Source: Candidatus Latescibacterota bacterium
GTDB taxonomy: Bacteria; Latescibacterota; UBA2968; UBA8231
Reading direction: 5' to 3'
DNA length: 64,000 nucleotides
Assembly (NCBI GenBank): GCA_965206595.1
Contig: OZ242214.1
Span: 6,112,001-6,176,000 of the forward strand
Below the pieces are notes generated by a model, which did not search any database, was not told where the DNA came from, and was given only the letters and a program-made list of their open reading frames with translations. The translations under genes were made by a program, and so were the position numbers. This document shows, piece by piece, positions 18,347 through 64,000 of this stretch; positions within the stretch are counted from its first letter, which is position 1; each line of letters opens with the position of its first letter.

Positions 18347-18370
18347 GGGGGCGAAACCGACCCCCCTACA
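18342..18370. repeat. REP-like palindrome / hairpin
   Basis: TGTAGGGGGG-9 nt-CCCCCCTACA perfect 10-bp stem overlapping the ruvB stop. Confidence 0.6.
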
Positions 18371-18377
18371 CGCAATA

Positions 18378-19082: not shown

Positions 19083-19573
19083 GCTTCGACTCGAAGAACT
19101 CGACGCCGGCTCGGTCCGCCAACTGCACAGCGTCATGGCGATCGAGAGACGATCCTTTCGCAATCCGTGGACGTTTGCCGAATTCCAGTTCCTTGCCGAA
19201 GACGCGCGCGCGCTGAACCTCGGCTTGTGGCGCAACCGGCACCTTGTCGGATACGCAATCGGGTATGCCAAGGGGCCAGACTTCCACCTCGCCAAGCCTG
19301 GCGGTCGAGCCAGCCTGGCGCCGACGAGGCCTTGCGACCCGGCTGCTCGTAAGCATCCTCGAGAGAGCTTGGCATCGCGGTTGCACTACTTGTCGCCTGG
19401 AAGTGTGTCCTTCCAACAGGTCGGCCCGGAGGCTGTATAACAAACTCGGATTCGAGGCCGCAGGGGAGATCCTCCGGTTTTACACCTGCCCGGAAGAGGC
19501 CGCCCTTCAGCTCAGGGGACGAATCCGGGAAATCCGCGGCCGGGAAATTCACAGCGATGCTGAAAACAGTTAG
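19075..19573 (+). pseudogene. rimI: Ribosomal-protein alanine N-acetyltransferase with one frameshift near 19295 (may be a sequence error)
   Basis: IERRSFRNPW in one frame; LAVEPAWRRRGLA and LEVCPSN..ARRLYNKLGF in the next; follows tsaB. Confidence 0.8.
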
Positions 19574-22918: not shown

Positions 22919-22935
22919 CCTTGTCTCGCGACCGG

Positions 22936-25891: not shown

Positions 25892-27548
25892 CCTGAATCC
25901 GTGAAGTCGAGGGCCTGATTTTTGGTTGCTTTCCGAGGGGAATCCAGGGTATAGTAGAGCAGGATTTGGACTCACCTTGGAGGTGAAGAATTGAGACCAG
26001 TTTCGTTTCACATTACGCAGGGCGAAGAAGCGCTGACGTCGCATTCGGGTTTGGCCTTGATGGGACGCCCGCGCTTGGCAGCGCGGGCCGATGAGATCAT
26101 CTTGCCGGAGCGCCCTCAGCCCGAGGTTTCTCACGGCGACGTGATGGCGTCGATGGTCGGTTTGCTGGCGCTGGGCAAGCCGGATTTCGAGGCCGTGGAA
26201 GCGTTTCGTGCGGATCCCTTTTTCTGCCAGGCGCTGGGCTTGGATACGGTGCCGTCGGCGGCCACCCTGCGGCAGCGGCTCGATGGCTTGGCCGGACCGG
26301 TGGAAGCCGCGATTCGAGAAGAGTCGGCCGACATGGTGGCCCGTCACGCGCCGCCGATGGTGGCCCTGTTACGAAGTCGCCGACGGGCGCTACGGTCCCT
26401 GGATCGCGCTCGATATCGACGTGTCGGTGTTCGACAACTCCCACACCAAAAAACAAGGGGTGTCGTGGACCTACAAGAAGGTCGACGGTTTTGCCCCGAT
26501 CTTCGCCTACCTGGGCCAGGAAGGGTATCTGATCAACTGCCAGCTGCGGCAGGGCAGCCAGCACTCCCAGGAAGGAGCCCCGGACTTTCTTCGAGACACG
26601 CTGCGGCTGGCGCGCCGTATCACCGGCGAAAAGCTGCTGGTGCGCATGGACAGCGCCCATGACGACCTCGCCACCGTACGGCAGTTGCGGCGCACGCCCA
26701 AGACCGACTTCATCGTCAAGCGCAACCTGCGCCGCGAATCGAAGCAGACCTGGCTGGAAAACGCCCAGGCCTTGGGCACGTGCACCTGTCCGCGAGCCGG
26801 CAAAGAGGTCTTCACCGGCTCGCTGAGGAGCGACAGGGGGTCTTCGAACGGGTGGTTTACGAGGTCGTGCGGCGCACGATCAGCGCCGAGGGTCAGGCGC
26901 TGCTGATCCCCGAGATCGAGGTGCAGACCTGGTGGTCGAACCTGGAGGCGCCACCCGAAGACGTGATCCGGCTCTACCGCGAGCACAGCACCTGCGAGCA
27001 ATTCCACGCCGAGCTGAAGACGGACAGGGACCTCGAACGCCTGCCGTCGGGCAAGTTCGCCACCAACGCCTTGGTGCTGCTGTTGGCCATGATGGCCTAC
27101 AACGCCCTGCGCCTGTGCGGCCAGACCAGCCTGCGCGAGGAGCGCCGTCTGCCTGCCGAAAAGCACGTGACTTTTCGTAAAAAGGCCGGCCGTCGGCGGC
27201 TCCGCAGTGTCATTCCGGACCTCATGTATCAGGCCGCCCGCTGGGTCCGGCATGGGCGCCGTTTCGGGCTCAGCTTCGGGTATTTCAACCCCTGGTTCGA
27301 TGTCTGGAGACGGACCTACCTGCAGAGTGTGTGCCTGAAGGCGACGACTTCCCCCGCCTTCGACTCCCCGGAGCACTCAAGGCAGGCGTAGGCCCGCTCT
27401 TGCGACTCCTATCGACTTGGAGAGCCATCGACAGCCCAATCCGCCGTAATGGCCTGTCGCTGACACCCAAATCCCCTGTTGACAAGTACATGACGCAGCT
27501 TAAATATCAAATTTGATCACCCGCTATAGAAGCGATCACGGATTCAGG
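25892..27548 (+). mobile_element. IS1380-family element with frameshifted transposase (about 25991-27391)
   Basis: Perfect 13-bp TIR CCTGAATCCGTGA; 5-bp TSD GTATG (25887-25891, 27549-27553); TSHSGLAL, PSAATLRQRLD, LDID, RMDS and LPSGKFATN motifs across three frames. Confidence 0.93.
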
Positions 27549-27550
27549 GT

Positions 27551-28330
27551 ATGGTCAATCTGACCGACATGCAATGGCAACGAATCCGCCATCACTTTCC
27601 TGAAGAACTTCGTCCCAAGAGCCATCCGGGTCGCAAACCGGTTTGCACCCGTGATGTTTTTGAAGCCGTCCTTTGGATTCTAAACACCGGGGCTCAATGG
27701 CCTATGTTGCCGCCGTGCTATCCGAACTACAAAACCGTGCATCGCCGTTTTCAAAACGGGTGTCGTCAAGGGGTGGTGCGCGAAGTTCTCATGGACCTGG
27801 CCCAGACCCTTCACGAGCAAGGGGGCCTGGACGAATCGGAGGCTTTCATCGACGGCATGTTCTCGGCGGCCAAGGGTGGAGGTGCCGATATCGGCCACAC
27901 CAAGCGAGGTAAGGGGGTGCGGGTCATGGGGATCGTGGACGGCAATGGGCTTCCCTTGTCGGTGAGCACGCATGCAGCGAACCATCATGAAGTGACGCTG
28001 GTTCAGTTGACCTTTGACTTTTACCTGATCGAAGACCAACCTGACAACTTGATCGGTGACAAGGCGTACGACAGCGATTCGTTGGATGAAGAACGTAAGA
28101 AAGACGGGATCGAGATGATCGCCTCGCATCGCCAGAATCGGACCAAGAAAAAGACTCAGGACGGACGGCGATTGCGGCGTTATGTGCGGCGTTGGATGGT
28201 TGAGAGATTCTTTGCTTGGCTTCAATGGCAGCGTCGAGTGATCACTCGCTGGGAAATTGTATCCGGAGAATTTTCTTGGCTTCGTCCAACTTGCATCCAT
28301 TTTGATTTTACTTAAACAATCTCAATTTTG
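27551..28330 (+). pseudogene. IS5-family transposase with +1 frameshift near 28255
   Basis: Matches 3770-4549 but reads GGGAAATTG instead of GGGAATTG. Confidence 0.85.
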
Positions 28331-28342
28331 AGATAGGTTCAG

Positions 28343-30202
28343 CCCTTGTTATTCATGGAATTTTAGTGGAGAGGGCTGTACTGGGTGCCTCCCATGCTTA
28401 GATTTCAGAGGGAAACACAAGGCAGTATCGCCCTTTGAACCCATCACACAGTAGGACACCCAATGGGTGAATTACCGTCACACACCGAGTCCGAGCAAGC
28501 CGGGCCGATTCAGCCGTCTTTCAACCGCTCCATCCACATCGAAGCCCGCCCCACCCACCTTGGCAGCGACACCGGTGCGCTGATGTTGCGTCAACTGCTC
28601 GAACACAGCCGGGTTCTGGATTGGGTCGACGCCCACTTCGAGGATCTCCGTACCCAAGACCAGATCACGCACCCGCTGCCGGAGCTGCTGCGCACACAGA
28701 TCGTGCTGCTGGCACAGGGCTGGACCCACGCCGCCGACGCCGACGCGTTGCGCCAAGATCCGATCCTGCGTCTGGCGGTCAGCGATCGCAAAGGGCAGGC
28801 GCCGTTGCGCAGCGGCGACGAAGACCGGCCGCAGGGACTGGCCAGTCAGCCGACGCTGTCGCGCCTGCTCGAGCAAGCCTCGACTGCCTATAACCGCGAG
28901 GTGTTGGAGGAAGCCGTCCTGCGCAGCGCCCGGTCTCGTTGCCGGCTGCTGGAAGGACGGATGAAATACGAGGAGTTGGCCGTCGACATGGATGCCCTGC
29001 CGATGCCGGCGCACGGGCACCAGGCGGGGGTCGAATACAACGGCTACTTCCACGCCTCGGGGTACCATCCCCTGCTCCTCGGCTCGGCGCAGACGGGCGA
29101 TTTCTTCGGTGCCGTGCTGCGGCCGGGCAACGTGCACGCCCATGAGGGCGCCTCAGAGGCTCTCGGCAAGCGCTTGGACTGGATTCAGTCGCATCTGGCC
29201 CGGCGCCTCATCCTGCGCTTCGACGCGGCCTCGGTGAGCGGGTCTTTCCTGAGTGAGCTGGAAGCGCGGGCCGACACCTCGTACGTGGCGCGCATCAAGA
29301 AGAATGCGCGCCTGGAGGAGCTGGCTCGTGCCTGGGTGGAAGGCTATCAGCAGGAGCTGGCGCAGCACCCGGAAGAGCTGCGGGAAGAGGGTTTTCGCTG
29401 TCGCGAGCTGCGCTATCAAGCCAGGTCCTGGGCGCAGCCCCGGCGGGTGGTGTTGGTCCTGGTCCCTTCCGAGACGGAAGAGCTGCCCATCGCCCGCCAC
29501 TTCTTCCTGATCACCGACCAGAGTCCCCAGACGATGAGCGGCCGCGACCTGGTCGCCTTTTATCGTCAGCGCGGCCTTTTCGAGCGCATGCTCGGCGAGT
29601 TGAGCTCCACCCTCCAGCCTCAGCTCTCCTCTACCACCCGTCGCAAGCAACACTACCGGGGTCGAGAGCCGCGTCAGCGCACCCCGTCCCGGGATGCCTT
29701 CGCTGCCAACCAGGCGCTTCTGACCTTGAACCTGCTGGCCTACAACCTGCTTCACCTGGGCCGCCAGGCCGCCGAACGCGCCGAGGCCCGACGCGGGCGG
29801 CCCCGCACATACGGACGCTCGACGACGGCCCTGAGCCTGGACAGTTTTCGACGGCGCTACCTGCGCCTGCCGTCCCGCGTCACCTTGCATGGGCGCAGGG
29901 TGGGCGTCATCCTGACCCAAGGGACGGCGGCTGCCTGGGATCGTCTGTGGAGATTTCTGGCCACGCTCAAACCGGTGGACGCGGCGATGGCGTAAGCGCA
30001 GGCCGGGTCGGTCGGGATGATGGGCTCGCAAAGGCAAGCGTCTTCGAGAAGGCGCGTACAATTTCAACAAGGTCGGTAGAGATAAGGAGACGGCTCTACC
30101 CAAAAAGCCGACTATAGAAGGGACGCAAGCCTCTGAGGCTAAGCAAAGGGGTCTCGGAAGCGCCTATGTCCGCTTATGCGCGGGTTGAATGAATAACAAA
30201 GG
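28343..30202 (+). mobile_element. Second, distinct IS1380-family element
   Basis: TIR CCCTTGTTATTCAT / ATGAATAACAAAGG; 5-bp TSD TTCAG (28338-28342, 30203-30207). Confidence 0.92.
28463..29995 (+). CDS. IS1380-family transposase
   Basis: GSDTGAL, DADALRQDP, LASQPTLSR, VDMD, HGHQ..YNGYF, FYRQRG..E motifs; uninterrupted 510 aa. Confidence 0.9.
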   Translation: MGELPSHTESEQAGPIQPSFNRSIHIEARPTHLGSDTGALMLRQLLEHSRVLDWVDAHFEDLRTQDQITHPLPELLRTQIVLLAQGWTHAADADALRQDPILRLAVSDRKGQAPLRSGDEDRPQGLASQPTLSRLLEQASTAYNREVLEEAVLRSARSRCRLLEGRMKYEELAVDMDALPMPAHGHQAGVEYNGYFHASGYHPLLLGSAQTGDFFGAVLRPGNVHAHEGASEALGKRLDWIQSHLARRLILRFDAASVSGSFLSELEARADTSYVARIKKNARLEELARAWVEGYQQELAQHPEELREEGFRCRELRYQARSWAQPRRVVLVLVPSETEELPIARHFFLITDQSPQTMSGRDLVAFYRQRGLFERMLGELSSTLQPQLSSTTRRKQHYRGREPRQRTPSRDAFAANQALLTLNLLAYNLLHLGRQAAERAEARRGRPRTYGRSTTALSLDSFRRRYLRLPSRVTLHGRRVGVILTQGTAAAWDRLWRFLATLKPVDAAMA

Positions 30203-36710: not shown

Positions 36711-36798
36711 GAGTGTCGTATCTTACTATTTTTATTGAACGTTGGTGACTTCATGGGCACCGTCCGAGTATCGCCCCGGGCTTAGAATCCGTCAAGAC

Positions 36799-38622
36799 AT
36801 GGCCGTTGACATCCTCGGGATTTCCGCCTTCTACCACGACAGCGCCGCATGCCTGCTACGCGACGGAGAGATCATCGCCGCCGCCCAGGAAGAGCGCTTC
36901 TCGCGGGTGAAGCACGACCCCGGTTTTCCCTCGCAGGCGGTTCGCTACTGTCTCCGCGAAGGCGGGATCGGAGCTGCCGATCTCGAATGCGTCGGTTTTT
37001 ACGACAAGCCGCTGCTTACCTTCGAGCGCCTGCTCGAAACCCATCTCAGCACGGCGCCGATCGGCATCCGGCTGTTCTGGAAGTCGATGCAGGTGTGGCT
37101 CAAGAAGAAGCTCTGGATTCCGCAGCTGATACAAAAGGAGCTCGGCCGCGACGTTCCCGTCCTGTTCGGATACCACCACGAGTCGCACGCGGCCAGCGCC
37201 TTCTATCCCTCCCCCTATGACGAGGCCGCCATCATCACCCTCGACGGAGTGGGTGAGTGGACGACGACGAGCTACGGCTTCGGGCGCGGCGCCGAGGTGC
37301 ACTCGCTTGCCGAGATGAACTTCCCGCATTCGCTGGGACTGCTTTACAGCGCCCTGACCTATTTCGCCGGCTTCAAGCCGAACTCGGGAGAGTACAAACT
37401 CATGGGGTTGGCGCCCTACGGCGAGCCGAAGTACGCCGGGCGCCTGCTCGACCAAGTGATCGACCTCGCCTCAGACGGTTCGTTCCGCCTCGACATGAAG
37501 TTCTTCAACTACCTTTCGGGCCTCACCATGACCTCGCCTGCGATGGCTGACCTTCTCGACGGTCCCCCCAGGCCCGCGGAGAGCCTGATCACCCAACGGG
37601 AAATGGATATCGCCCGCTCCTGCCAGGTGGTGACGGAGGAGGTGATGCTGCGGATGGCCCGGCAGGTGCACGCCGAGACCGGTATGTCGAAGCTCTGTCT
37701 GGCGGGCGGTGTGGCATTGAACTGCGTCGGCAACGGCCGCATCCTGCGCGAGGGACCATTCGACGACATCTGGGTCCAGCCGGCCGCCGGGGATGCCGGG
37801 GGAGCGCTCGGCGTAGCGTTGTCGATATGGCATCGCCACCTCGGCAACGAGCGCACCGCGGACGGCGCACGCGATGCCATGAAGGGAGCCCACCTCGGTC
37901 CGGCTTACGGCGACGAGGAGATCGCCGACTATCTCGAACGCGTCGAGGCCCCAGCCCGGCGCCGGTCCGCGGAGGAGCTTTCTGCGGACGTCGCCGAGCT
38001 CCTCGACGAAGGCATGGTGATCGGCTGGTTCTGCGGCCGCATGGAGTTCGGGCCACGGGCCCTCGGGGCCCGAAGCATCCTCGGGGATCCGCGCTCACCG
38101 AGGATGCAGTCCCGGATGAATCTCAAGATCAAATACCGGGAGAGCTTTCGGCCTTTCGCTCCGAGCGTGCTGCGCGAGCACGTCGCCGACTACTTCGAAC
38201 TCGATGCCGACTCACCCTACATGCTTATGGTCGCGCCGGTGCGGGAAGATCGGCGTCTCCCGATATCGGAAGAACAGCGCCAACTCTTCGGAATCGAGCG
38301 GCTGAAGGTCCCGCGTTCCGAGATCCCGGCAGTAACCCATGTCGACTACTCGGCGCGCATACAGACGGTGGCGCGAGAGGACAATCCCCCCTATTACGAC
38401 CTCATCCGGGCTTTTTTCAGCCGTACAGGCTGCCCTCTGGTAGTAAACACTTCGTTCAATGTTCGCGGCGAGCCGATAGTCAATACCCCGGAAGAGGCCT
38501 ACCGCTGTTTCATGCGCACCGAGATGGACTACCTGGTACTCGGCAGCTTCCTGCTCGACAGGCGGGAGCAGCCAGCCTGGGTAGAGGGGCAGTCCTGGCA
38601 GCAGGAGTTCGCACCGGACTGA
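36799..38622 (+). CDS. NodU/CmcH/TobZ-family O-carbamoyltransferase
   Basis: GISAFYHDSAA, QEERFSR, HHESHAASAF, DGVGE, GEYKLMGLAPYG, AGGVALNC, EFGPRALG, NTSFN. Confidence 0.95.
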   Translation: MAVDILGISAFYHDSAACLLRDGEIIAAAQEERFSRVKHDPGFPSQAVRYCLREGGIGAADLECVGFYDKPLLTFERLLETHLSTAPIGIRLFWKSMQVWLKKKLWIPQLIQKELGRDVPVLFGYHHESHAASAFYPSPYDEAAIITLDGVGEWTTTSYGFGRGAEVHSLAEMNFPHSLGLLYSALTYFAGFKPNSGEYKLMGLAPYGEPKYAGRLLDQVIDLASDGSFRLDMKFFNYLSGLTMTSPAMADLLDGPPRPAESLITQREMDIARSCQVVTEEVMLRMARQVHAETGMSKLCLAGGVALNCVGNGRILREGPFDDIWVQPAAGDAGGALGVALSIWHRHLGNERTADGARDAMKGAHLGPAYGDEEIADYLERVEAPARRRSAEELSADVAELLDEGMVIGWFCGRMEFGPRALGARSILGDPRSPRMQSRMNLKIKYRESFRPFAPSVLREHVADYFELDADSPYMLMVAPVREDRRLPISEEQRQLFGIERLKVPRSEIPAVTHVDYSARIQTVAREDNPPYYDLIRAFFSRTGCPLVVNTSFNVRGEPIVNTPEEAYRCFMRTEMDYLVLGSFLLDRREQPAWVEGQSWQQEFAPD

Positions 38623-39107
38623 TGCCGGCCACGAACGGGGGCCCAGCCGCGAAGGGGAAGCATTCCTTCTGGATGATTCCGGCGCCTGCCGCGGGGCAGC
38701 TGCGCAGCTTTGGATTACTGATGGCGGCCGCCAGCGCATGTGCAGGAGGGGGTCTGTGGTTCCTTCAGTCACAGCCGGAGGCGCTGTGGGCCGGAGGCCT
38801 GGCCGTCTGGCTGCTGGCATGCGCCATGTTCTGGCTAGGGCCGCTGCGGCCTCTCTACCTCGTCTGGATGACGCTGGCAAGAGTTCTGGGGTTCGTCAAC
38901 TCTCACCTGCTTCTTGCCCTGGTTTTCTACTCGATTTTCACCGCGTTCGGGCTGATCATGCGCTTGGTGCGCTACGATCCCCTGCAGAAAGCCGGATCCG
39001 AGGAGGTGGGGCATGACCGGATCGACAGCGGCGAAGGAGAGAGGTCCTACTGGTTGAAGCGGGAGAATCCACTGCACTCCCGCGACCATTTTCAGCGTCA
39101 ATTTTGA
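38622..39107 (+). CDS. SxtJ-like membrane protein
   Basis: LRSFGL, PLYLVWM.LA..LGFVNS, DPL, SYW and C-terminal RQF; translationally coupled to the carbamoyltransferase. Confidence 0.78.
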   Translation: MPATNGGPAAKGKHSFWMIPAPAAGQLRSFGLLMAAASACAGGGLWFLQSQPEALWAGGLAVWLLACAMFWLGPLRPLYLVWMTLARVLGFVNSHLLLALVFYSIFTAFGLIMRLVRYDPLQKAGSEEVGHDRIDSGEGERSYWLKRENPLHSRDHFQRQF

Positions 39108-40183: not shown

Positions 40184-40454
40184 GGTCGTGCTAGATGGGG
40201 AGTTAGCGGTGCCCTGTGACCCGCAATCCGCTACAGCGGGATCGAAGTCCCATCCGAGGCCCCAGCGTCTCTCAATCGTCCGATGAGAAGTGGCGTCGAA
40301 AGCCAGATTCCGCGCAACGGAAGGTTTCCGAACCCCGTCAGGACCGGAAGGTAGCAGCGGTAGGAACGCCATTGCGTGTGCCGCGGAGCCGTCTGGCTGG
40401 AGCCAACTGGCATCGGCCGAAACGGAGGCCGGGTTCGAAGATGGGTGCACGACC
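40184..40454 (+). ncRNA. ffs: Large (Alu-containing) bacterial SRP RNA
   Basis: Helix 8 GTCAGGACCGGAAGGTAGCAGC; terminal pairing GGTCGTGC/GCACGACC; 5' Alu-like segment; T-run after; directly upstream of dnaX. Confidence 0.93.
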
Positions 40455-52253: not shown

Positions 52254-52308
52254 GCGGCAGGCCTTTCGACGAGCGCGATCGCCGCCCGCGCCTCGAAGGA
52301 GTGTGATC

Positions 52309-54381
52309 ATGCCGGAGAAAGCCCGCGAGCGAATCCGGCGGCTGGCCCGGCCTTTTTTGAGAGCACTGGCTCCGCCCTTCTTCTGTTCTTTCCTGTTCTG
52401 TTCTTTCCTGCTTGCCCTCCCCGGCTGCACGGTAAAGAGACCCCAGGTTCCGATACTCGATCTAACGGTGAGCATCTCGGTCGCCGACGATACGACGACG
52501 ATTCGCGACGTCGCCAAGCGCACGGAGTTTCTGCGGATCGACTCAGACGACCGCTTGGCTCTCGATTTTACCAGCGAGTTCGACGGGGGTGCCGAAGTCG
52601 GAGACAGCCTGCAGGTGACCCCGGGGCAGGGAACCTTCCGCACTCCGCTCGGGCCGATCTCGATCCCAGGTCAGGGAATTCCCGTTACCGGAATCTCCCT
52701 GAGCAGCCTGCTGGGAAAAGAGATCCCGGAAACCGACTCGGCGGTACCCCTTGCGGGAACCGATTTCGAAACCGAGGTCCGGTTCACACTCGAAGACGCG
52801 ACCTCGTTGACAATCGAGGAGGGCGGCTTCAACCTGTCCATCCACAGCAAACTGCCGATACCGGTCGCAATGAAGCTGGTCCTGGTCGACGCCGGCAAAG
52901 GCGGCGTCGAGGTGGAGGAGATCGACTTGGGAAGCATCGCTCCCGGCGACTCCGCGGCCGCCTACTTCGACCTGGGCGGAAAAAGGATTTCGGGCTCTCT
53001 GGTGTTTCGCGTCGCCGGGGCCACGGATGAAGCCGAGGTGCAGATCCAGGGGGAACCCGCTCTGGAGATTTCGGGCGTTCTGCGCGACCTGAAAGTGAGC
53101 GAGGTCACCGGGATGATTCCGCAACAGGTTTTGGCCGGCGTCCATATCCTGGAGATTGCCGACGACCGCATCCGGGCTACCCGCGCCGAGATCAGTGAAG
53201 GGGTAGTCGCTCTCGAGGTCGGGAACGGAACTTCAGTCCCTTTGTCCGTTACCCTGACACTAGACGACCTGCGCGCGTCTGACGGGGAGATTCGCACTTT
53301 CACCGTCGACAAGCTCCTTCCCGGCGAGGAAAGGCAGGTTCTCTTCGACCTCGCCGGCAACGAGTTCGTTCCCCTGGATCCGCTTTCGATCCGGCTTTCC
53401 TGGGAGGTCACGACGCTGGCGACGGAGACCGAGGCGACCATCCGGTCCGACGACGAGTTGCAGGTGGAGGCACGTCCCGGAAGAATCCTGTTCAACCGTC
53501 TTGAGGGGACTCTCGACAGGGTCGAGCTGCCAATGAATACGGTCACCGATACCATCGATTTTCCGAACGGCCTGAATCAAGTCGCGCTGAGTTCCACCTC
53601 GCTCGCCGTCTTCGTGACCTCGGCGGCCGCCTACAGCAGCGAGCTGAATCTGTCGATCATCGGTACCAACCTGTGGGGGGAAAGCAGCACCATATTGGAT
53701 TCACAGGTTCTCCCACCGGGAAATCCGGACGCCCCGGTCAGCATTGCGATCGAACGAGACTCCGAGGACCTGATCAGCTTCATGAACCTGCTGCCCACCG
53801 AAATCACCATCGTCCCGGAGGTCTTCCTCGGGGACGGCGCCAGCGCCGGCGAGATCGAGGCCGGTGACTGGGTCAGGCTCGACAGCCTCGTGTTCGATGT
53901 TCCTGCCCGCTTCCGGATCACCGGCGATACACGGATCGAGCCGGACCCGGTGCACCGCGAGTTCTCGGACGACGAATGGAGGCGGCGCATCCGCTCCAAT
54001 CTCAAGAGCGCCTCGGTCACAACGAAGATCGAGAGCCACATCCCCCTGGGATTGACGGTCAGCATCCAGGTCGGCAGGACCGAGGAGGGGGTGTACAGGA
54101 ATCCGGTGCTGACCATACCGACCGACGGGACCGGATTCGGCGTCGCCGCGGCTCCAGTCGACAAGGACGGGCGGGTCGTCGCAACGACACGGTCCGAGAA
54201 GGCCTTGGAGCTCACGGCAGAGGACGTTCTGGTCTTCCTGGAGGAAGGAGGCGTCTACACCGGAGTGCTAGTGCAGGTCGAGAGCACCGATGGCGAAATC
54301 GAGCTGTTCGGCAGCGACTTCTTCACCGTGCAGGCGGGGGCGCGGATCTTCATCGAGCTGAACGAGAGCCTGGTGGAGTAA
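52309..54381 (+). CDS. Large hypothetical beta-rich lipoprotein
   Basis: AAGGAG RBS; lipobox LPGC; acidic, beta-strand-rich mature region; no catalytic motif recognised. Confidence 0.75.
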   Translation: MPEKARERIRRLARPFLRALAPPFFCSFLFCSFLLALPGCTVKRPQVPILDLTVSISVADDTTTIRDVAKRTEFLRIDSDDRLALDFTSEFDGGAEVGDSLQVTPGQGTFRTPLGPISIPGQGIPVTGISLSSLLGKEIPETDSAVPLAGTDFETEVRFTLEDATSLTIEEGGFNLSIHSKLPIPVAMKLVLVDAGKGGVEVEEIDLGSIAPGDSAAAYFDLGGKRISGSLVFRVAGATDEAEVQIQGEPALEISGVLRDLKVSEVTGMIPQQVLAGVHILEIADDRIRATRAEISEGVVALEVGNGTSVPLSVTLTLDDLRASDGEIRTFTVDKLLPGEERQVLFDLAGNEFVPLDPLSIRLSWEVTTLATETEATIRSDDELQVEARPGRILFNRLEGTLDRVELPMNTVTDTIDFPNGLNQVALSSTSLAVFVTSAAAYSSELNLSIIGTNLWGESSTILDSQVLPPGNPDAPVSIAIERDSEDLISFMNLLPTEITIVPEVFLGDGASAGEIEAGDWVRLDSLVFDVPARFRITGDTRIEPDPVHREFSDDEWRRRIRSNLKSASVTTKIESHIPLGLTVSIQVGRTEEGVYRNPVLTIPTDGTGFGVAAAPVDKDGRVVATTRSEKALELTAEDVLVFLEEGGVYTGVLVQVESTDGEIELFGSDFFTVQAGARIFIELNESLVE

Positions 54382-54396
54382 CGGGGCCGGCGAGAG

Positions 54397-55815
54397 ATGA
54401 CCGGGATACCGAAGGCCGGAATGCTTTCCATCCACTGGCGGGAAACAGCCACCGCGATGGTGCTGACGCTGGCCTTCGAAGGTTCCCTGTTCGCCCTCAG
54501 CGACACCGAACCGCGGGCGCTGGCGCTCGGGCAGGCGTACACCGCATTGGCGAGAGGGCCGGAAGCGGTCTTCTGGAATCCCGCCAACCTCGCCCTGGGC
54601 GGAGGGCCAAAATTAAAATGGGAGGTGTTTGGTGCCGGCCTGACCCTGATAACGGAAAACAACAGTTTCTCCGTCCGCACCTACAACGACAACTTCACCG
54701 ACGACACTCACAGGATCGGGACAGCCGAAAAGAAGGAGCTGCTCGGGGATATCCCCGCGGACGGATTGAGGTTCAATGCCGACCTCGTGCCGTTCATTTC
54801 CGCCGGTCTGCCCGTCAACGGGGGCATCTCCTTTCCCCTCAGGAATGGGATTCAGGCCGCGGTCACCACGAACGTCGCCTTCGGAGTGGAGGGGGAAATG
54901 CCGAAGGACATGTTCGATTTGATGTTGTTCGGCAACGAATTCGACCGCCCCTACGAAATCGCCAAGTGGGACGGGTCTTCCTGGCTAGTCGGGGGGGTGA
55001 ACTTTGCGGGGGCGAAACCCTGGATGCCCGCCAGGCTTGCCTCGCACCTGCGCGAGTTCACGGTTGGAGGGACCGTGAAGATTTCAGGAGGGGCCTACGG
55101 CGAAATCACCCGGTCCGATGGCGGCATGATCTCACGCATCCAGGGAACCGACCTGGAGGGGTTTGCGCTCGTCCGGCGCAGCGGTGGCATCGGACTCGGG
55201 GTGGACTTCGGGGTGGCCGGCGTCACCACGGACGGCAGGACCACCTTCAGCGCCGGCATGCTCAATCTTCTGGATTTCATCCGCTGGAACATCGGAGCGC
55301 GACAGGACTCGGTGTTTTCCAAGGCGACCAGCCTGCGGGTGACCCGCTTTCTCGAGCCGGACCAGGTCCGGATGAGGGACGTGCTCGAGAACGAGGACAT
55401 CGACGGCGACGGCGATCCCGATTTTCGCGAGAGCCTCAGCGAGGACGGCTTCTTTCGCTCGCTGCCGGCGATGCTGCGCGTGGGGTTCGCACACTGGCCG
55501 ATTCCCCACATGACGGTGGTCGGCAACTACGACCAGGCCTTGAGCTCCGGTTTCGGGATATCCCCGATGCCCAAGATCTCCACCGGAGCCGAGTACCGCC
55601 TGGTGCCGTGGTTTCCTACGCGAATCGGTTTGTCGATCGGGGGACGCAGCAGCAGCACCGGTGTGGGTTTCGCCTTCGGGCCGTTCAACGTCGGCCACGC
55701 GCAGCTAGAGTTTTTCGATCTCGCGCTGGTGACTCGCGGGGGATTGCTGCCGGGCTTTTCGAAAGGCTCCGCCATGTCGATCATGTTCTTCCGCTTCAAT
55801 TTCATCAATGCCTGA
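54397..55815 (+). CDS. Outer-membrane beta-barrel protein (FadL/PorV/DUF5723-like)
   Basis: PRALALGQAYTA...AVFWNPANLA N-terminal motif; GIGLGVDFG and GAEYRL strands; aromatic C-terminus; start uncertain. Confidence 0.75.
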   Translation: MTGIPKAGMLSIHWRETATAMVLTLAFEGSLFALSDTEPRALALGQAYTALARGPEAVFWNPANLALGGGPKLKWEVFGAGLTLITENNSFSVRTYNDNFTDDTHRIGTAEKKELLGDIPADGLRFNADLVPFISAGLPVNGGISFPLRNGIQAAVTTNVAFGVEGEMPKDMFDLMLFGNEFDRPYEIAKWDGSSWLVGGVNFAGAKPWMPARLASHLREFTVGGTVKISGGAYGEITRSDGGMISRIQGTDLEGFALVRRSGGIGLGVDFGVAGVTTDGRTTFSAGMLNLLDFIRWNIGARQDSVFSKATSLRVTRFLEPDQVRMRDVLENEDIDGDGDPDFRESLSEDGFFRSLPAMLRVGFAHWPIPHMTVVGNYDQALSSGFGISPMPKISTGAEYRLVPWFPTRIGLSIGGRSSSTGVGFAFGPFNVGHAQLEFFDLALVTRGGLLPGFSKGSAMSIMFFRFNFINA

Positions 55816-55986
55816 AATCCACCGGTCCCCCTATCCCAGAAATACCAAAGCCCCCCGACACAAAATGGCGCCGAGGGCTCATAGAAATGAACGAGGCCTC
55901 TGTAAAAATCCAAAGGCCTCGAATGTGAGAAGCGATGCTCCTCGTCAGACGGCTCCAAGACCGCGGTGCCGCCGGTGGGGGATCGC

Positions 55987-56163
55987 CTAACGGTTGGGGT
56001 TGCTCCACCAACCGGAACCGGAACCGGAACCGTCTGAAGTATCCTGCTGCCCCTGCTCGCCTGTCGTCCCGATACCGCCGCCGACCTTTTCAGCCTCGTT
56101 GTCTTCGAGGGGCTCAACCTCTGCGTCCTTCGCTTCTTCTTCGCGCTTCTTTTCTTCGCTCAT
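55987..56163 (-). CDS. Putative double-glycine-leader peptide precursor (58 aa)
   Basis: AGGAGG RBS 8 nt before ATG; leader ending EPLEDNEAEKVGG; directly downstream of a C39-peptidase ABC exporter on the same strand. Confidence 0.8.
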   Translation of the reverse strand: MSEEKKREEEAKDAEVEPLEDNEAEKVGGGIGTTGEQGQQDTSDGSGSGSGWWSNPNR

Positions 56164-56279
56164 CGTTTCATCCTCCTGGGATTGAGTTGGTGGGGATGCC
56201 CGGTTACACAACCATCGCCAAAGTCGAGGGGGCGAACTTCTGCGGCCGCCTCTGTTTTCCGCTTCGTTTCTTTGCTCAT
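56160..56279 (-). pseudogene. Truncated paralogue of the precursor peptide (39 codons)
   Basis: GGAGG RBS; MSKETKRKTEAAAEVRPLD aligns with MSEEKKREEEAKDAEVEPLED; no GG motif follows; ATGA overlap with the next ORF. Confidence 0.62.
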
Positions 56280-56328
56280 TTCAACCTCCCTGGAATGAGG
56301 TCAGGGGCGATTAGGCGCTCGAATGCAC

Positions 56329-56373
56329 ACGCTATTAATAGCGTAGTAGTACACGTTTCCCCGGGATTGTCAA
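56329..56373 (-). promoter_or_regulatory. Putative promoter/operator for the precursor genes
   Basis: Minus-strand TTGACA at 56373-56368, weak -10, then perfect 16-bp palindrome ACGCTATTAATAGCGT (56329-56344). Confidence 0.55.
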
Positions 56374-56446
56374 GTATTTATTGGGGGCGGGGGATGAGAC
56401 ATCGAGCGACGACCGGATTGGCAGTCGAGCCGCGAAGCGAGGTGCA

Positions 56447-59378
56447 TTACCCATGCACCAGCTGCCGCCGGGAAAGGGCTGCGAAGACCCCGTCCCGTTT
56501 GATCAGCTGGTCGAAGCGGCCGCTTTCGACGATACGCCCGGCGTCGAGCACATAGATCCGGTCGACATCCCGGATCGAGCTGAGCCGGTGGGCGATCACC
56601 AGGCGGGTTACCCCGAGTTTTTTCAACGAGTCTTGAACAACGGCCTGGGCGCGATTGTCGAGCGCACTGGTGGCTTCGTCGAACAGGAGGACTCGCCGCT
56701 TGCGGGCGAGGGCGCGCGCGCGATCAGCAGCCGCTGCTTCTGTCCCACGGAAAGCCCGGTACCGCCCTCCGGCAGCACCGTGCGCATACCCATTGGCATC
56801 GCCCGGATATCCTCTTCGAGAGCGGCGGCACGCGCTGTCGCCCAGGCTTCATCCGCACTCAACGGGGACGGGCCCGCGATATTTTCGTAGATGCTGCCGG
56901 CGACAACCTGGCCGTTCTGCAGAACGACGCCCATGGGGCCGCGGACCGCGTTCAGATCGAGGCTCGAAAGATCGTGTCCGTCGAGAAACACGGTTCCGGA
57001 ATCCGGCTGCTCGAAGCCGAGCAGCAGGCGATAGATCGTCGATTTGCCGCAGCCGGACGGACCGACGAAGGCGACGTAGTCACCCTGTCTTATGCGGAAG
57101 GATATGCCGTCGATCGCCTTCGGACTTTCTGGAGAATAGCGGAAGGTCACGTTGGCGAACTCGATCTCTCCCTTGAGATCCCCCGGATCGATGCCGCCGT
57201 CCGCGGTTTCGGGACGCGCTTCGAGAATCGGCCGTACTCGCTCAAGAAGAGGGATGATCCCGACTGCTGTCGTGGCGGCAGTCGTCAGCCCGATCACCGC
57301 GCCCGTCAGCTGCCCGAACGCGGCATTGAAGGAAAGGAAGGCCGCCAGATCGAATGTCGGCTTTCCGCCACGTATGAGGGCATAGTGGACCGAGGCGAAA
57401 ATGGCGATCAGGGCAAGAGGCTGGAACATGCCGGCTACAACGTGCTGACCGGCGGCCCAGCGAAGCGCGGCCAGGCTTTCCCGTTTCTGCCCGGCGAAGC
57501 GCTGAGCCCAGCGCGCGAGTGCGTAGCTTTCGGCATTTGCAACCCGGAGCTTGGCGAGGCCGCCGATCATCTGAAAAACGAATCCATGGAGTTTTCCCTG
57601 GGTGCGGAACAGGGCGCGAAAGTGGCGAAGCTGCCCAGCGAAAGGATCCAGGTCGTGCCTGTCAAAACGAGCAGCAGGCCGCAGACACCCAGGGCCAGCG
57701 ACCAGCTGTAGTAGAACAGCAGCACCAGACTGAAGATCGAAAAGATCCCTCCCATCGCCGCCTGCACCGCAGCCCCGGTCAACGTCTGTCGGATTTCGCT
57801 GATGCCGTTTGCCCGGTTTTCGAGGTCGCCGGCGGTGAAGCGCCGAAAGAACGGCGCCGGCAGTGAGATCAGCCGGCTCCAGATCGCGGTCTGCAGGCGC
57901 TCGTCAACCCGGCCCTCGATCCTCAGCAGCGCGATTCCGCGCACGACTTCGAAGACCGCGTTGCCGAACGCGACCAACAGGAGAGCGCCCAGAGCGGCGA
58001 ACCAGAGCGGTATGTCCGCGCCGCGCGCGGGGATAATGCGGACGAGGAGCTCTCCCGTGAGGATCGGGGTCAGCAGCGCGGCGAGTCCTCCCAATACCCC
58101 CACCGCAAGCATGGCGCGCAGATCCCGCCCGCGCCGGTGCATGGAGAAGCCCAGGGCCGCCTTGCCGCTCTCGACGTGGTCGGGAAGCGGTGCGTAGAAC
58201 GTCAGCCCACCGGGTTTGAGTCCGGAGGCCATACCGTCGTCCAACGGAAAGGATGCGCCTGTTTCCGGATCCACTGCGCGGTAGGCCCCGCGACTGTCCG
58301 CAAGAATCCCGAGCGGCCTTTCGTGGCCTTCTTCCGCGGCTGCGAAGCCCACGAAGGAAGGACCATCCCGCCGCCACCAGCCCGGGGAGAGTGAAATCCA
58401 GCGCGTTCGTATGCCGGACCTGCGGGCGAGAGCCTCGATCTCTGCGAGCGGGTCGCGGGCTTCCTCCTGCCGAGGGGGGATCTGCAGCGACGCACCGCAG
58501 GATGAAGCGACCAGGGCCGCGGCCATTTGCAGCGGAGTGTGGCCACCCGTGCCGGCCGGTTCGCCGTCAGCAGTCGCCGCCATAACCCCCCCAAGGCCGC
58601 GCAGGGCCCCGGATACCGACGAGCGGCGGGCTTCATGGGCACTGCGCCGGCGTTCCTCGGAAGTCTCGGCCTCACTGAGGACGGCGAACTCGAGGACGAT
58701 CGCGCTGAAGCGGTCGAATCCGGGCCAGAGCCGCTCCGTCTGCAGGGCGGTCGGTGTATAGATCGCCGAAACCTCGGCGTCTGCGTCGATTTCGAACCAG
58801 GTCACCTCGGTGACAGGCAGCAGCGGTTCCCCCTCCGTTACGACGAGGTCGTGGCGTCCCGAAAGGCGCATCGGCGTGTTCGCAGAGACCCAGATGACGT
58901 CCATGTGCTGGGCGGAGAGGGCGGAGCCCGAGGGATAGGGCACGTCGGGATCGGCCTCGAGCAGCAGGGCGTCGCGAGGTGGAGGCCGATCGCGGACCAG
59001 GAATTCCGAGAAACTGGATATCCATTCGTCGATCCAGTTGGTCGCGGCGAGGTCGAAACTTTCCGAGGCGACACCGATGCGCTCACCTTCGACGAGGACC
59101 GCGTTCAGCGAGGGCACGGCGAGAAAGCCGAAAGTGCGCCCCGGTCGCGCCGGGTCCTCGATCCGCTCGCTGCCGAAAGCCATCTCTCCGGCCGGCACGC
59201 GGGCGACGTAGCGCCTCCTGCCGGCAACCTGGTCGGCCTTCATCTCGACGGCGAAAACGTCGAGATACCCCTGCTCGACAAAATGGACGCGCGTAGGGTC
59301 GTCCATCGAAAAGGGCCGGTTCGCCCCGGTCTCGATGCGGAGGCCGCGGATGCGCTCTATGAGCGGGACATCGGTCAT
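56447..59378 (-). pseudogene. NHLM bacteriocin-system ABC transporter, second (peptidase-less) subunit, frameshifted
   Basis: cNMP-like N-terminus, WWRRDGP, TM domain, GPSGCGKST, LSVGQKQR; frame changes near 57600 and 56715. Confidence 0.85.
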
Positions 59379-59383
59379 CGCAA

Positions 59384-61575
59384 TCAGTCCGACATGACCA
59401 GGGTGCGATACAGACCGTCTTCGGCGATCAGCAGGTCATGGGTGCCGCGCTGGACGATACGGCCGCGGTCGAGAACGACGATTTCGTCAGCATCCCTTAT
59501 GGTGCTGAGCCGGTGGGCGACGATGAGGCAGGTGCAGCCGCGCTGCCGGAGCCGGTCGTCGATTTCGACCTCGGTTACCGGATCGAGCGCCGAGGTCGCC
59601 TCGTCGAGTACCAGGACCGCGGGGTTTCGCGCAAGAGCCCGGGCCAGCTCCAGGCGCTGGCGCTGGCCGCCGCTGAAATTGCGCCCGCCCTCGTCGACCG
59701 GGGAGTCGTACCTCAGGGGCCGCGCCGCGATAATTTCGTGGATTGCGGCGTCGCGCAGGGCCTGGACGATGTCTCGCTCTTCGATAGTCGGGTCCCACAG
59801 GGCGACGTTCTCGCGTACGCTCCCCTCGAAGAGGACGATATCCTGATCGACATGAGACACGGTTTCGGCAAATCGGGAGGGTGGAATGTCGTTGAAATCC
59901 TCGCCGTCGATACGAACGCTTCCGGACCAGGGCGTCAACATCCCGCAGATCAGCCTGGCAATGGTGGATTTGCCGCTGCCGGAGACCCCCACGAGCGCCA
60001 CGCGTCTGCCCGGCGGGATCGACAAGGTGAAATCCTCGATCAGGGGCGGCCCCATGGAATTGTACCCGAAGGTGACTTTGTCGAGTTCGACGAAGCCGCG
60101 CGGGGCGGGGGCGGGGGCGGACATGTCCGGCTCGCGTTCGTTGACGCCTCGATACGTGCGTTCGTCCGGGGAGTAGTTCAGCACGTCGTCGAGGCGGGCG
60201 ATATCCCCTTTATCATCTGGAGGTTGGCGCCGAATCGGAGGAGACCCTGCACCGGCTGCGAGAAGCTGACCGCCAGGCTCTGGAAAGCGATCAACCCGCC
60301 GATGGTGAGGGCACCTTCGAGGATGCGCAGCCCCCCGAAGCCGAGGATGGCGATAACGGTTAGCAGGGAGAGTAGCACCGGGACGACGTTGGCGAAGGTC
60401 GTAACCAGGCCGAGCCGTTGTTGAGCGTTCAGTGCGTTTGCATGAATGCCGGACCAGCGCGCGAAGAAGGCGCCATCGGTACCATTGGCCTTGAGCGTCT
60501 CGATAATCAGGATACCGTTTATCGAGACGCCGGAGACCCTGGACCGCTCCTTGAGCAGGCGGCGATTGGCATTCTCCCGGGCGCCGCCTGCAAGCCGCAG
60601 CACCAGGAGATTGACGGCGACCATGGCCAGGGCGATCAGGGTCAGCGGAACGTCGTATGAAAGCATCACCGCCGCGTAGAAGGTCATGGCCAGGGTTGAG
60701 GGCGTTGACCGCCAGCTCCCTGAGAGCAACCGCGCGACCCTGTCGTTCGACACGACCCGGCTGGTGATGTCGCCGGCATGACGCTGGCTGAAAAACAGCA
60801 TCGGCAGCGTCACCACGTGCCAGATGAATCGCGCCGTAGTGACGATGGACAGCTTGGTCTCCATGCGGGCGAGGAGGGTCCGCTGCAACCAGATCAAGGC
60901 GCCCTGAGCTGCTGCGGCCAGAGCCAGGCCGATCAGCAACGGCGCCATCCAGGCGCCGTTCTGCCGGACCAGGACATCGTCGATGAACACCTTGAGCATG
61001 GTCGGAACCGCCACGCCGGGAACGACCAGCGCCAACGTCGCCAGGGCGGCGAAGGCGAGGGGTCTCCGCGCCTGACCGAAACGGGCGTTCAGTCCTCGCA
61101 CCAGGTTCGGCCTTGCTCCGCCCCGGGTGAACCCGGGACCCGGTGCGAAACCGAAACAGACGCCCGTGAAGCTTTCATCGAACTCCTCCAGGGAGATTCG
61201 ACGAGGTCCCTCGCTCGGGTCGTTGATATAGGCTCTGTCACCCTTGATCCCCTCGAGCACGACGAAATGGTTGAACTCCCAGAAGAGGATCATCGGGAAG
61301 GGAAGGTCGAACAGACGGCTGCGAATGCTGCGGAAGCCCCGCGCGACGAGGCCGTATTCCCGGGCCGCGCGCAGGATATTGGCGGCATTGGCGCCGTCGC
61401 GCGAGACGCCGCAACGCACCCGCAGGGTCTCGAGCGGGACCCACCGGCCGTGATAGGCGAGGACCATGCCGAGGCAGGCTGCTGCGCACTCGGTGGACTC
61501 CATCTGCAGGATGGTAGGCACGGCGAGGCGGCCGCTGCGCCTCAGGTTGGGGCGGAGAGCCGCGTCCTGGCTCAA
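59384..61575 (-). pseudogene. NHLM bacteriocin-system C39 peptidase/ABC transporter, frameshifted
   Basis: VPTILQMESTECAAACL, CGVSRDG, WEFNHFVV, INDP; GVSGSGKST, FSGGQRQR, LDEATSALD; frame break near 60200 and a probable lesion near 60715. Confidence 0.88.
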
Positions 61576-62819
61576 AAGGCCGAACGTCTCCTTGAACCAC
61601 GGCAGGACCAGCTCCGCGGGTGGCTGGGTGGAGACCTCGACCTCGACCTCGGCCAGGGTTTCGGGAGTGATGTCGATTCCAGCGGCCTGGGGCGAGTCCA
61701 GGCGAAACCGCTGGCGGTCGATGGGTCGAGGGTGAGCGCGACGCGGCCGGGGTAGGGAGGCCCGGCTTTCGAGAAGGTCCTTGCCAGGTCCTCGTTCTGC
61801 AGCACGGCGATCATGCCGTTGAGGCTCGCCGGGAATTCGGAGAGGCTCTCGACCGTGCCGATCATATACCCGAACTCCTCGTGCCGCGCAGTGGCCGGAG
61901 ACACCAGGGTGGGCATGCCCGCTTCGACGCGCTTGCCGTCGATAGGGGGAACGTAGATCAGCACGTCGAGACCCTCACTACCCGTCTCGATGCTGATTAC
62001 GGACTGGCCCTGGGCGAGGGTGGCGCCGACCTGCGCCTTGATCTCGGTGACGCGCCCCGATACCGGGGCCTGGATGCGCCAGGTTCTCATTACGGCCGCG
62101 AGCTCCTTTACCTGCCGTTCCGCCTCCTGGTGTTCCGCCTTCGCCAGGGTGACGCGTGCCTGGGTTTCGTTTCTGCGGAGGAGCTCCCACGCCTCCAGTT
62201 CGTCGCGACGGCGCATGGCGTCGAACAGGTTGCGCCGGGCGAGATCGAGGGCATGCTCGCTGCGCTCGACCGAAGCCCGGTTTACGATACCTCTTTCCAG
62301 CAGCGACTGATCGACTTGCAGGCGTTCGTCGGCCTTTTCGATCAGCTCGCGGCCGGTGCGCTCTAGCTCTCCCAGGCGGGCACGCTGCCTGGCGATGTTC
62401 TGCGACGCAAGTGCGTTTTCCTCCCTCGCCTCGGATTCCCGATCCTGAAGGATTCCGGCGCGTTCACCCGCCAGGGAGACGGCCCCGGAATAGCGCTCCA
62501 TGATCTCGGGGTCGAGGATCTCGGCCACGAGGTCCCCTTCGGCGGCCGCTTCCCCGACGGCGGGAAGAATCCGGGCCAGCTTGCCACCGTTGGAGGAAGC
62601 GGCGTCGAAAACCATACCGGCTCGGCTCAGGATGATCCCGTTGGCCTTCACGTAGCTGGAAACTTCCCCCCAGACCGCCCAGAGTATGACGGCAAGGGTC
62701 ATGGCGATGAGCACGCAGAGCGCCAGCCAGGCCTTGGCAGTCGTCACGAAAAGGGCGCGGTCGAGATGTTAAGGGGTTCCGAGACGTACTGTCGTGTCTT
62801 TTCCGACAGGTTTTTTCAT
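61572..62819 (-). pseudogene. NHLM bacteriocin-system HlyD-family secretion protein with in-frame stop
   Basis: ATG 62819 gives MKKPVGKDTTVRLGTP*HLDRALFVT (TAA at 62771-62769); coiled coil, APVSGRV, GKRVEAGM, EEFGYMIG, SGFAW; frameshift near 61695. Confidence 0.85.

Positions 62820-63150: not shown

Positions 63151-64000
<850 letters not shown>

Follow-up and report, generated by a model that had tools for sequence, protein, structure and literature searches.

The stretch of DNA considered here, referred to below as the window, comprises 64,000 nucleotides (nt) of a Candidatus Latescibacterota bacterium (assembly GCA_965206595.1, contig OZ242214.1, positions 6,112,001 to 6,176,000 of the forward strand), and the element in question is gene B, a short open reading frame (ORF) adjoining the genes of an NHLM-type peptide exporter. 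On the minus strand the genes follow one another in the order HlyD-type adaptor, first ATP-binding cassette protein (ABC1), second ATP-binding cassette protein (ABC2), a 167-nt spacer, ORF A and gene B (Table 1). The ORF quoted in the initial annotation is present exactly at its place, running from an ATG at 56163-56161 to a TAG at 55989-55987, and the strong ribosome-binding site ascribed to it is the AGGAGG listed in the table. Folding of the region 3' of gene B (55870-55990) gave a z-score of -3.6. Scans of 55700-56700 for sigma-70 promoters and, at E <= 1, for Rfam families returned no match. The palindrome in the spacer, ACGCTATTAATAGCGT, may be an operator; in the control, at least one match at <=3 mismatches occurred in 6 of 100 shuffles. 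Two genes converge on gene B from the other side (52303-55815, plus strand), encoding a 692-amino-acid (aa) protein without family and a 472-aa DUF5723 protein.

Table 1. Coordinates of gene B, its signals, the exporter genes and other features of the window
Feature	Position	Strand or place	Basis or remark
Gene B, putative precursor, 58 aa + stop, MSEEKK...GWWSNPNR	55987..56163	minus	ORF read, 38 related clusters
Predicted leader, residues 1-30	56074..56163	minus	39-member alignment
Predicted core, residues 31-58, IGTTGEQGQQDTSDGSGSGSGWWSNPNR, 28 aa, net charge -2, no Cys	55990..56073	minus	alignment
Hexanucleotide repeat (coding strand GGTTCC, 3.8 copies), encodes GSGSGSG	56010..56032	minus	
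Shine-Dalgarno AGGAGG, 8 nt before gene B ATG	56172..56177	minus	direct reading
Terminator-like hairpin, GC-rich, 11 pairs, then T-rich tail	55892..55921	minus	3' of gene B
ORF A, 39 aa, own GGGAGG	56160..56279	minus	DNA comparison with gene B
16-bp perfect palindrome ACGCTATTAATAGCGT	56329..56344	spacer ABC2/ORF A	unique in window
NHLM ABC2, permease/ATPase without peptidase, three frames (59378-57567, 57570-56623, 56626-56447)	56447..59378	minus	TIGR03797
NHLM ABC1, C39 peptidase/permease/ATPase, two frames (61575-60178, 60184-59384)	59384..61575	minus	TIGR03796
NHLM HlyD-type adaptor	61572..62819	minus	TIGR03794, 179.8 bits from GTG 62747, cut-off 156.2
Mutator-family transposase	2162-3532		partial copy in inverse orientation at 1-855 (855 bp, 99.5% identity)
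IS4/5-type transposases	3635-4549 and 27551-28315		
IS3 pieces	4782-5933		
Group II intron domain	4638-4707		
DDE_Tnp_1_4	28463-29995		fragment at 26208-26906
Complete rRNA operon: 16S, tRNA (8089-8162), 23S, 5S	6427-11768		
Carbamoyltransferase	36742-38622	plus	
SxtJ-like domain, other frame, after carbamoyltransferase	within 37827-39107	plus	
Large-type signal recognition particle RNA	40186-40452		adjoins three tRNAs

The peptide gene had been placed immediately downstream of the exporter trio, and this holds with the qualification that ABC2 stops at 56447 and ORF A (56279-56160) lies between ABC2 and gene B. The stop codon of ORF A overlaps the ATG of gene B. At the DNA level, ORF A repeats the ribosome-binding region and approximately the first 19 codons of gene B, after which it diverges and contains no Gly-Gly; in another frame, the same region is open straight through into gene B. 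A homologue search with ORF A, extended by its seven upstream in-frame codons, gave no candidate, and the sole NCBIfam or Pfam match of gene B and ORF A was to DUF5427 (E 0.44). ORF A is probably a degenerate partial duplicate of gene B.

Each of the three NHLM models is the top match of its ORF or ORF pieces, and the three families are adjacent on the same strand. The two pieces of ABC1 score 549.2 and 401.4 bits against TIGR03796 (cut-off 853.3) and the three of ABC2 score 246.7, 362.8 and 81.2 bits against TIGR03797 (cut-off 709.4), the single pieces falling below the cut-offs because the genes are split. The Peptidase_C39 domain of ABC1 (E 5e-34) is uninterrupted, and its best match in the PDB is LahT150 (6mpz, E 1.3e-48), with the EC...NHF motifs aligned. 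In the alignment of ABC1, LahT150 and PCAT1, ...TECAAACL... of ABC1 stands opposite ...LECGAASL... and TDCGAACL, and NHFVVL opposite NHFVVL and AHFVVI; the aligned Cys and His are presumably the catalytic residues. The initial annotation was therefore correct in recognising an NHLM-type trio beside gene B, but its statement that the peptide is served by this exporter is in doubt for the present genome, where the exporter frames are interrupted. The first ~280 residues of ABC2 (58539-59378, minus strand; 13868-14710 in the Chloroflexota locus L001), which lie ahead of the TIGR03797 match, show 27-28% identity and invariant motifs. In either lineage, this part gave no significant Pfam match (best E 0.13) and no sequence match in the PDB, and its AlphaFold model from four sequences was unusable, with a predicted local distance difference test (pLDDT) score of 34.9.

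Relatives of the peptide are few by direct search and more numerous by profile. A word-indexed search found two close relatives only, and an exhaustive phmmer search of 1.84 billion representatives at E <= 0.001 likewise gave two, with 78% and 51% identity. When a single genome of each species was scanned with a pattern, 142 matches resulted, of which seven were confirmed by tblastn and six are true loci (L001-L006), all in Chloroflexota or Dehalococcoidia genome bins and at 40-54% identity; the seventh, L007, was rejected as a chance match within a long alternative-frame ORF and is left out of all counts. A profile built from 11 sequences recovered 39 clusters, 38 of them at E <= 8.4e-4 (best 1.3e-23) and one, P0039, at 0.044. 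All 39 are unnamed or labelled 'hypothetical' and are without a precomputed Pfam domain. When the members were scanned one by one with NCBIfam, none of the 39 matched a curated core family, and seven members (the window peptide and six others) gave no family in Pfam. Furthermore, tblastn against a plasmid collection gave no match, and searches with core motif words (GWWNDPN and others) found no relevant literature, supplements lying outside that search. Judged by these comparisons, the peptides make up an uncurated and unnamed family of predicted precursors that is conserved across phyla, and the proposal of a new peptide family is thereby borne out.

Gene B is a real gene and more than chance, because it has relatives at E values down to 1.3e-23 and because six-frame scanning of the window and seven loci with the profile shows the peptide as one copy per true locus. 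The N-terminus MSEEK is common to gene B and its Chloroflexota relatives, whose frame is closed six codons upstream. A scan of the window, L001 and L004-L006 for small acidic ORFs with a Gly-Gly leader gave, besides the members of the family, a single antisense ORF within ptsI. It could be argued that the ORF is spurious or encodes a small acidic cytoplasmic protein, the exporter being unrelated and the Gly-Gly coincidental. In keeping with this, the peptide is acidic and of low complexity, the AlphaFold model of the precursor from 39 sequences is disordered (pLDDT 57.8), and the look-alikes in the ESM Atlas all remain under the 0.9 level of significance (top score 0.88). Nevertheless, conservation across phyla (E down to 1e-23), Gly-Gly at a fixed distance from L/M(-12), E(-8) and L(-7) in nearly all members, the adjoining trio in two lineages with different gene order and a relative with an NHLP leader all argue to the contrary, and such a coincidence appears very improbable.

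The leader and core were delimited in the alignment of the 39 members, counting back from the conserved Gly-Gly. Glycine occupies position -1 in 37 members and position -2 in 38, A, I or V is found at -4 in 37, L at -7 in 27 (A in six), E at -8 in 34 and L or M at -12 in 32. The window peptide follows the same spacing, with L19 at -12, E23 at -8, A24 at -7, V27 at -4 and G29-G30 at -2/-1, so that the initial description of a canonical double-glycine leader stands. The -12/-8/-7/-4 spacing is that of ComA and LahT substrates and of the LxxxxL helix of proteusin leaders as described in the sections of PMC6363468 and PMC10858898 drawn on here, and the leader end agrees with the leader-end logo in the part of Haft et al. 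consulted (PMC2887384). The family alignment puts the cleavable pair at G29-G30, for which reason cleavage would be expected after G30 rather than G29, in agreement with P0004 (VVGG-IGT); the predicted leader then has 30 residues instead of the approximately 29 first proposed, and the core would start at I31. Leader length is 27-42 residues in 38 of the 39 members and 96 in P0039.

The cores are more uniform than is usual for exported precursors of this system, a point taken up below. In 35 of the 39 members the core has exactly 26 residues, and within these W20 is invariant (35/35), P24 is found in 34, and G2, E6, G19 and W21 in 33 each. The family consensus is xGxxDEQxPQNTSDxxGSGWWNDPN(R/L), the tip reading W-S-N in the window and W-N-D in relatives. 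The core of the window peptide reaches 28 residues through one extra Gly-Ser unit encoded by the hexanucleotide repeat; those of its closest relatives have 26 and 24 residues, and close relatives contain one or two such units fewer. The acidic, Cys-free core with its Gly-Ser stretch and WWSNPNR tip noted initially is confirmed, and across the family net charge ranges from -6 to 0 and 35 of 39 members lack Cys. One member, P0005 (94 aa), continues for 37 residues beyond the ...GWWNDPN tip in an Arg-rich tail, which may be a frame or stop difference in its contig.

Curated models touch the family chiefly in its leader part. With NCBIfam, 12 of the 39 members matched a lantibiotic leader model weakly (best E 0.041) and five matched the BlpC model weakly (best E 0.026). 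The window peptide has no match at E <= 1 to the NHLP model TIGR03793, the N-terminal domain of ~70-80 aa being absent, and none to the Nif11 model TIGR03798, for which the best among the 39 members is a single one at E 0.037. In P0039 the core of 26 aa, with GSGWWNDPNRY as its end, comes after an NHLP leader (TIGR03793, E 2.4e-7). The separation from long NHLP and Nif11 leaders made in the initial annotation consequently applies to the window peptide, which has no such domain, but not to the family, of which P0039 is a member. Since a complete NHLP leader precedes the 26-aa core in P0039, the short leader of the others seems to be what is left of an NHLP/Nif11-type leader, namely the end that the protease recognises.

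The arrangement of peptide gene and trio recurs outside the window. L001-L003 are 94-97% identical to one another and hence represent one Chloroflexota lineage; each has the peptide gene, ~525 nt without a credible ORF, and then intact HlyD, ABC1 and ABC2 genes, with ABC1 scoring 900 bits (cut-off 853) and ABC2 761 bits (cut-off 709). Gene order in these loci is the reverse of that in the window, the peptide lying upstream of the trio. Since the order is reversed and the trio still adjoins, the association of peptide and trio has been kept through rearrangement. L004-L006 belong to one Dehalococcoidia lineage and have alpha/beta hydrolase, SnoaL-like, NYN-domain and CMD-family proteins as neighbours. 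There, a SnoaL-like/NTF2-like gene of 133-156 aa follows the peptide gene on the same strand (L004 10315-10716, L005 10316-10717, L006 1473-1943), and in two of the three it is followed in turn by a NYN-domain gene. A comparison of neighbours across the three lineages gave no common family apart from the trio.

Modifying enzymes were sought around the peptide gene in all these loci. In the window, Pfam scans covered 35 of the 40 called ORFs, four further ORFs or pieces and 40 gap ORFs. They showed housekeeping genes, the rRNA operon, several transposases and a TPR protein, and contained no radical-SAM, YcaO, LanM, ATP-grasp, P450 or similar enzyme in the 64 kb, in line with the initial remark that no recognisable maturase lies there. 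Five window ORFs are without family, namely 17576-18661 (minus), 19000-19440, 22324-24858, 26507-27376 (minus) and 52303-54381, the first of which is probably an antisense ORF of ruvB. No recognisable maturase was found within 10 kb either side in five sister loci, nor in the 4.2 kb of the sixth. The homology search suggested at the outset was thus fruitful for sister precursors (38 further clusters) but not for adjacent maturases, none being recognised in the stretches scanned at the six sister loci. The accompanying ideas of radical-SAM cyclophane formation and ATP-grasp ligation likewise find no support, as no such enzyme was found in the 64 kb or in those stretches and no neighbour family but the trio is common to the lineages. 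A weak match of one of the 39 members to GRASP_targ_2 (E 0.29) is the sole curated hint of modification. The 628-aa protein upstream in L001 was considered as a maturase and set aside; in the Atlas it falls among uncharacterised polysaccharide-deacetylase-like clusters, and it is absent from the other lineages. Neither a histidine kinase nor a response regulator was seen among the scanned ORFs of the window or of L001, L004, L005 and L006, and there is no small membrane-protein gene between ABC2 and the terminator-like hairpin.

Gene B probably encodes the precursor of a small exported peptide, belonging to an uncurated family that uses the NHLM (NHLP/Nif11-system) C39 ABC exporter and likely acting as an unmodified or lightly modified extracellular ligand. 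According to this proposal, the last ~13 leader residues (L-12 ... E-8 A-7 .. V-4. G-2 G-1) would dock on the C39 domain of ABC1, the bond after G30 would be cut, and the machine of ABC1, ABC2 and HlyD would expel an acidic core of 28 residues (26 in most relatives). The short leader would be the remainder of an NHLP/Nif11-type leader whose N-terminal globular part, a docking surface for some maturases, has gone. Outside the cell, the core would act as a signal or binding peptide and not as a membrane-active bacteriocin. Recognition, cutting and export by the trio are proposed because the C39 domain is LahT150-like and because the leaders keep the last part of an NHLP-type leader, the whole domain of which is present in P0039. 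An extracellular ligand is favoured because the core is conserved, of fixed length, anionic and hydrophilic, and because genes for a maturase, an immunity protein or a sensor kinase are not linked to it. Of three more specific identities, two were rejected and the third appears unlikely. A lasso peptide, suggested by the invariant G2 and E6, would by reasoning have too small a ring, and neither of the lasso genes B and C was observed; an srp proteusin, suggested by the Trp-bearing core and the NHLP leader, would have an LCCCW core, and there were no YcaO or halogenase matches; a class II membrane-active bacteriocin does not suit a core of net charge -2 (-6 to 0 in the family) with no linked immunity gene.

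The same core lends itself to a different account, in which gene B encodes the precursor of a peptide made on the ribosome and modified after translation (RiPP) whose maturase, for example a synthase of cyclophanes between Trp and residue +2, is encoded elsewhere in the genome, the exporter handling the modified product. G2, E6, W-W, P and the fixed 26 residues would then mark recognition or cross-link sites. The conservation and fixed length of the core speak for this, as do W-x-N or W-x-D at the tip in all lineages and the relative with a full NHLP leader, a kind that usually recruits maturases; moreover, the part of PMC2887384 consulted describes NHLP/Nif11 precursors that can lie far from modification genes. 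On the other hand, no radical-SAM, YcaO, LanM, ATP-grasp or P450 gene was found in the window or in the 20-kb loci of two lineages, the lineages share no neighbour family, the short leader is without the N-terminal NHLP domain, and the GRASP_targ_2 match is weak. Modification by an unlinked enzyme is rated well below export of an unmodified or lightly modified ligand, but it is a serious rival, since invariant residues and a fixed length would suit recognition by an enzyme just as well. A bolder formulation spans both accounts: the family may represent a new class of secreted bacterial peptide, a strictly 26-residue, anionic, Trp-Trp-tipped ligand that is conserved across phyla, has shed the NHLP domain and kept only the export tag, and that is either an unmodified intercellular signal or a peptide binding a host or partner, or else the substrate of a novel, unlinked modification on the invariant E6 or W-W-x-D/N-P-N, in which case it would define a new RiPP class. 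This we hold to be rather doubtful at present.

Several observations weigh against the proposed export of an unmodified ligand. Strict conservation of the core and a relative with an NHLP leader fit enzymatic modification equally well. Genomic context comes from the window and L001-L006, the other 32 clusters being proteins alone, and no trio is present in the flanks of L004-L006, which extend 10 kb in either direction at two of these loci and are confined to a 4.2-kb contig at the last. At -7, the leader of the window peptide carries Ala instead of Leu, a trait common to the six members mentioned above, and the close relative P0024 (VGGR-MGT, with GGR where the window has GGG) fits either cutting one position earlier or a nonfunctional copy; since P0024 would fit the earlier cut, the cleavage site may be taken as placed within +/-1 residue. 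Finally, the exporter genes of the window contain one in-frame stop and at least four frameshifts, located by tblastn against the intact L001 protein and by three-frame translations. The stop is a TAA at 62769-62771, codon 17 of HlyD counted from the ATG at 62819; the frameshifts lie near a CCCC run in HlyD (61689-61692), at AAAGGGG in ABC1 (60205-60211), near 57631-57638 in ABC2 and, with a shift of +2, at a (GC)5 run in ABC2 (56712-56721).

These breaks raise the question of whether the locus is a decaying relic in the present genome, with a pseudogenised exporter, ORF A as a wrecked second precursor and gene B surviving by its shortness, while the family functions elsewhere. The six lesions counted in the ~6.3 kb that the exporter genes occupy, among them a nonsense codon in the conserved N-terminus of HlyD, suggest decay, as do the heavy load of insertion sequences (IS) in the window and the nature of ORF A as a truncated duplicate without relatives. 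Lesions are concentrated ~twentyfold in the exporter, although runs of at least four identical bases are equally dense within the locus (10.1 per kb) and outside it (11.9 per kb); between 12.9 and 55.8 kb, the remaining genes that Pfam covers over their full length appear intact, and elsewhere among the scanned genes frameshifts were noticed in RimI and ClpB only. The two copies of one IS align over 855 bp with 0 gaps, which argues that indel error is not rampant, and by arithmetic a 177-nt gene would stay intact ~84% of the time at ~1 lesion per kb. Conversely, four of the five exporter frameshifts counted lie at or beside homopolymer runs and one in the (GC)5 run, as is also typical of consensus errors, and the frameshifts in the conserved housekeeping genes ClpB and RimI point to assembly error. 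The motifs of the ATPases (Walker A and B, signature and H-loop) and of the peptidase are intact in the exporter translations, and the family scores are high, so that any decay must be very recent; read through with X at the stop, HlyD reaches 190.2 bits against TIGR03794, with model positions 1-15 aligned across the stop. The peptide cluster P0001 is, moreover, listed with three member sequences on five contigs. Very recent decay and local consensus error come out about even, and a relic at this locus is accordingly neither favoured nor disfavoured. Export of the peptide in the window genome is in doubt, for it depends on the breaks being assembly errors or on an exporter elsewhere in the genome.

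The remaining features of the window are collected in Table 1. Mobile elements are heavy at 1-6100 and 26200-30000. The ClpB gene (63151-64000, plus strand) changes frame at a CCCC run at 63684-63687, after ...GKLDP of the protein, and the RimI-like GNAT acetyltransferase gene (19000-19573, plus strand) has a +1 shift near 19295, with its N-terminal portion in one frame and the portion bearing the GNAT motif in the next.

To our knowledge, the secreted peptides of uncultured Chloroflexota and Dehalococcoidia are essentially unstudied, and the present family is found mainly in such bins. Its value is moderate, as a genome-mining lead without a function and with an exporter that reads as broken in the window genome. 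Among known peptide classes, the triceptides are radical-SAM cyclophane RiPPs with an aromatic-x-x motif and an adjacent radical-SAM maturase. The family shares with them the three-residue aromatic-x-x motif only (W-S-N; W-N-D in relatives), and no locus scan gave a Radical_SAM match; it differs from the graspetides in that no adjacent ATP-grasp ligase was found in the window or locus scans. The srp proteusins resemble it in having an NHLP leader family, a Trp-bearing core and a range that includes Chloroflexota; however, the SrpE core described in the consulted parts of PMC10858898 and bioRxiv 10.1101/2023.06.09.544420 is LCCCW with C-terminal Trp bromination, as against xGxxDEQ...GWWNDPNx here, with neither a YcaO nor a halogenase gene in the vicinity.

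Double-glycine peptides of Gram-positive bacteria (ComC/BlpC and class II bacteriocins, with ComA and PCAT1 as transporters) resemble the family in their short Gly-Gly leader, the L(-12)xxxE(-8)L(-7) spacing, the C39-ABC transporter and an apparently unmodified core, and there are leader-only weak matches to the BlpC, ComC and lacticin-481 models (best E about 0.02-0.04). They differ in that the exporter here is the heteromeric NHLM type with a second ABC protein and a HlyD adaptor, and the hosts are Chloroflexota and a bacterium of 62% GC; unlike ComC/BlpC loci, those scanned here have no kinase/regulator pair or immunity gene nearby, and the core is anionic and hydrophilic. With LahT/LahA (6mpz) the link is the C39 domain, that of the window being closest to LahT150. 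The sections of PMC6363468 drawn on here describe LahT150 as needing only the last 13 leader residues, so that it accepts leaders of that length, and as cleaving Nif11, NHLP and short leaders. LahA substrates are nevertheless Nif11-leader lanthipeptides of a LanM-type pathway, and no such enzyme is encoded here.

The proposed system would work in the manner of NHLP/Nif11-NHLM systems and of ComC/ComA-type export. With the former the family shares the three-gene exporter and an acidic leader end in which L(-12), E(-8) and V(-4) are followed by Gly-Gly. Its leaders, in 38 of 39 members, are far shorter than the ~83 aa (NHLP) and 70 aa (Nif11) given in the consulted part of PMC2887384, the window peptide has no NHase- or Nif11-like domain and no linked maturase, and the core is conserved, of fixed length and mostly Cys-free instead of hypervariable. 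In the same part of that study, Haft et al. (2010) state that the trio has a broader distribution than NHLP, and they predict that additional families of precursors exist. As the NHLM exporter is wider in distribution than NHLP and Nif11 precursors, other cargo families must exist, and the present family appears to be one such cargo, distinguished by its minimal leader and by a Trp-Trp core of 26 residues that is conserved. A leader cut down to a protease tag, a conserved, fixed-length, anionic and hydrophilic core and the lack of a linked enzyme are all unusual for NHLM cargo. The family offers a compact test case for whether NHLM-type export in vivo requires no more of the leader than its last ~13 residues, and equally for the role of cargoes that combine a conserved core with the absence of a maturase.

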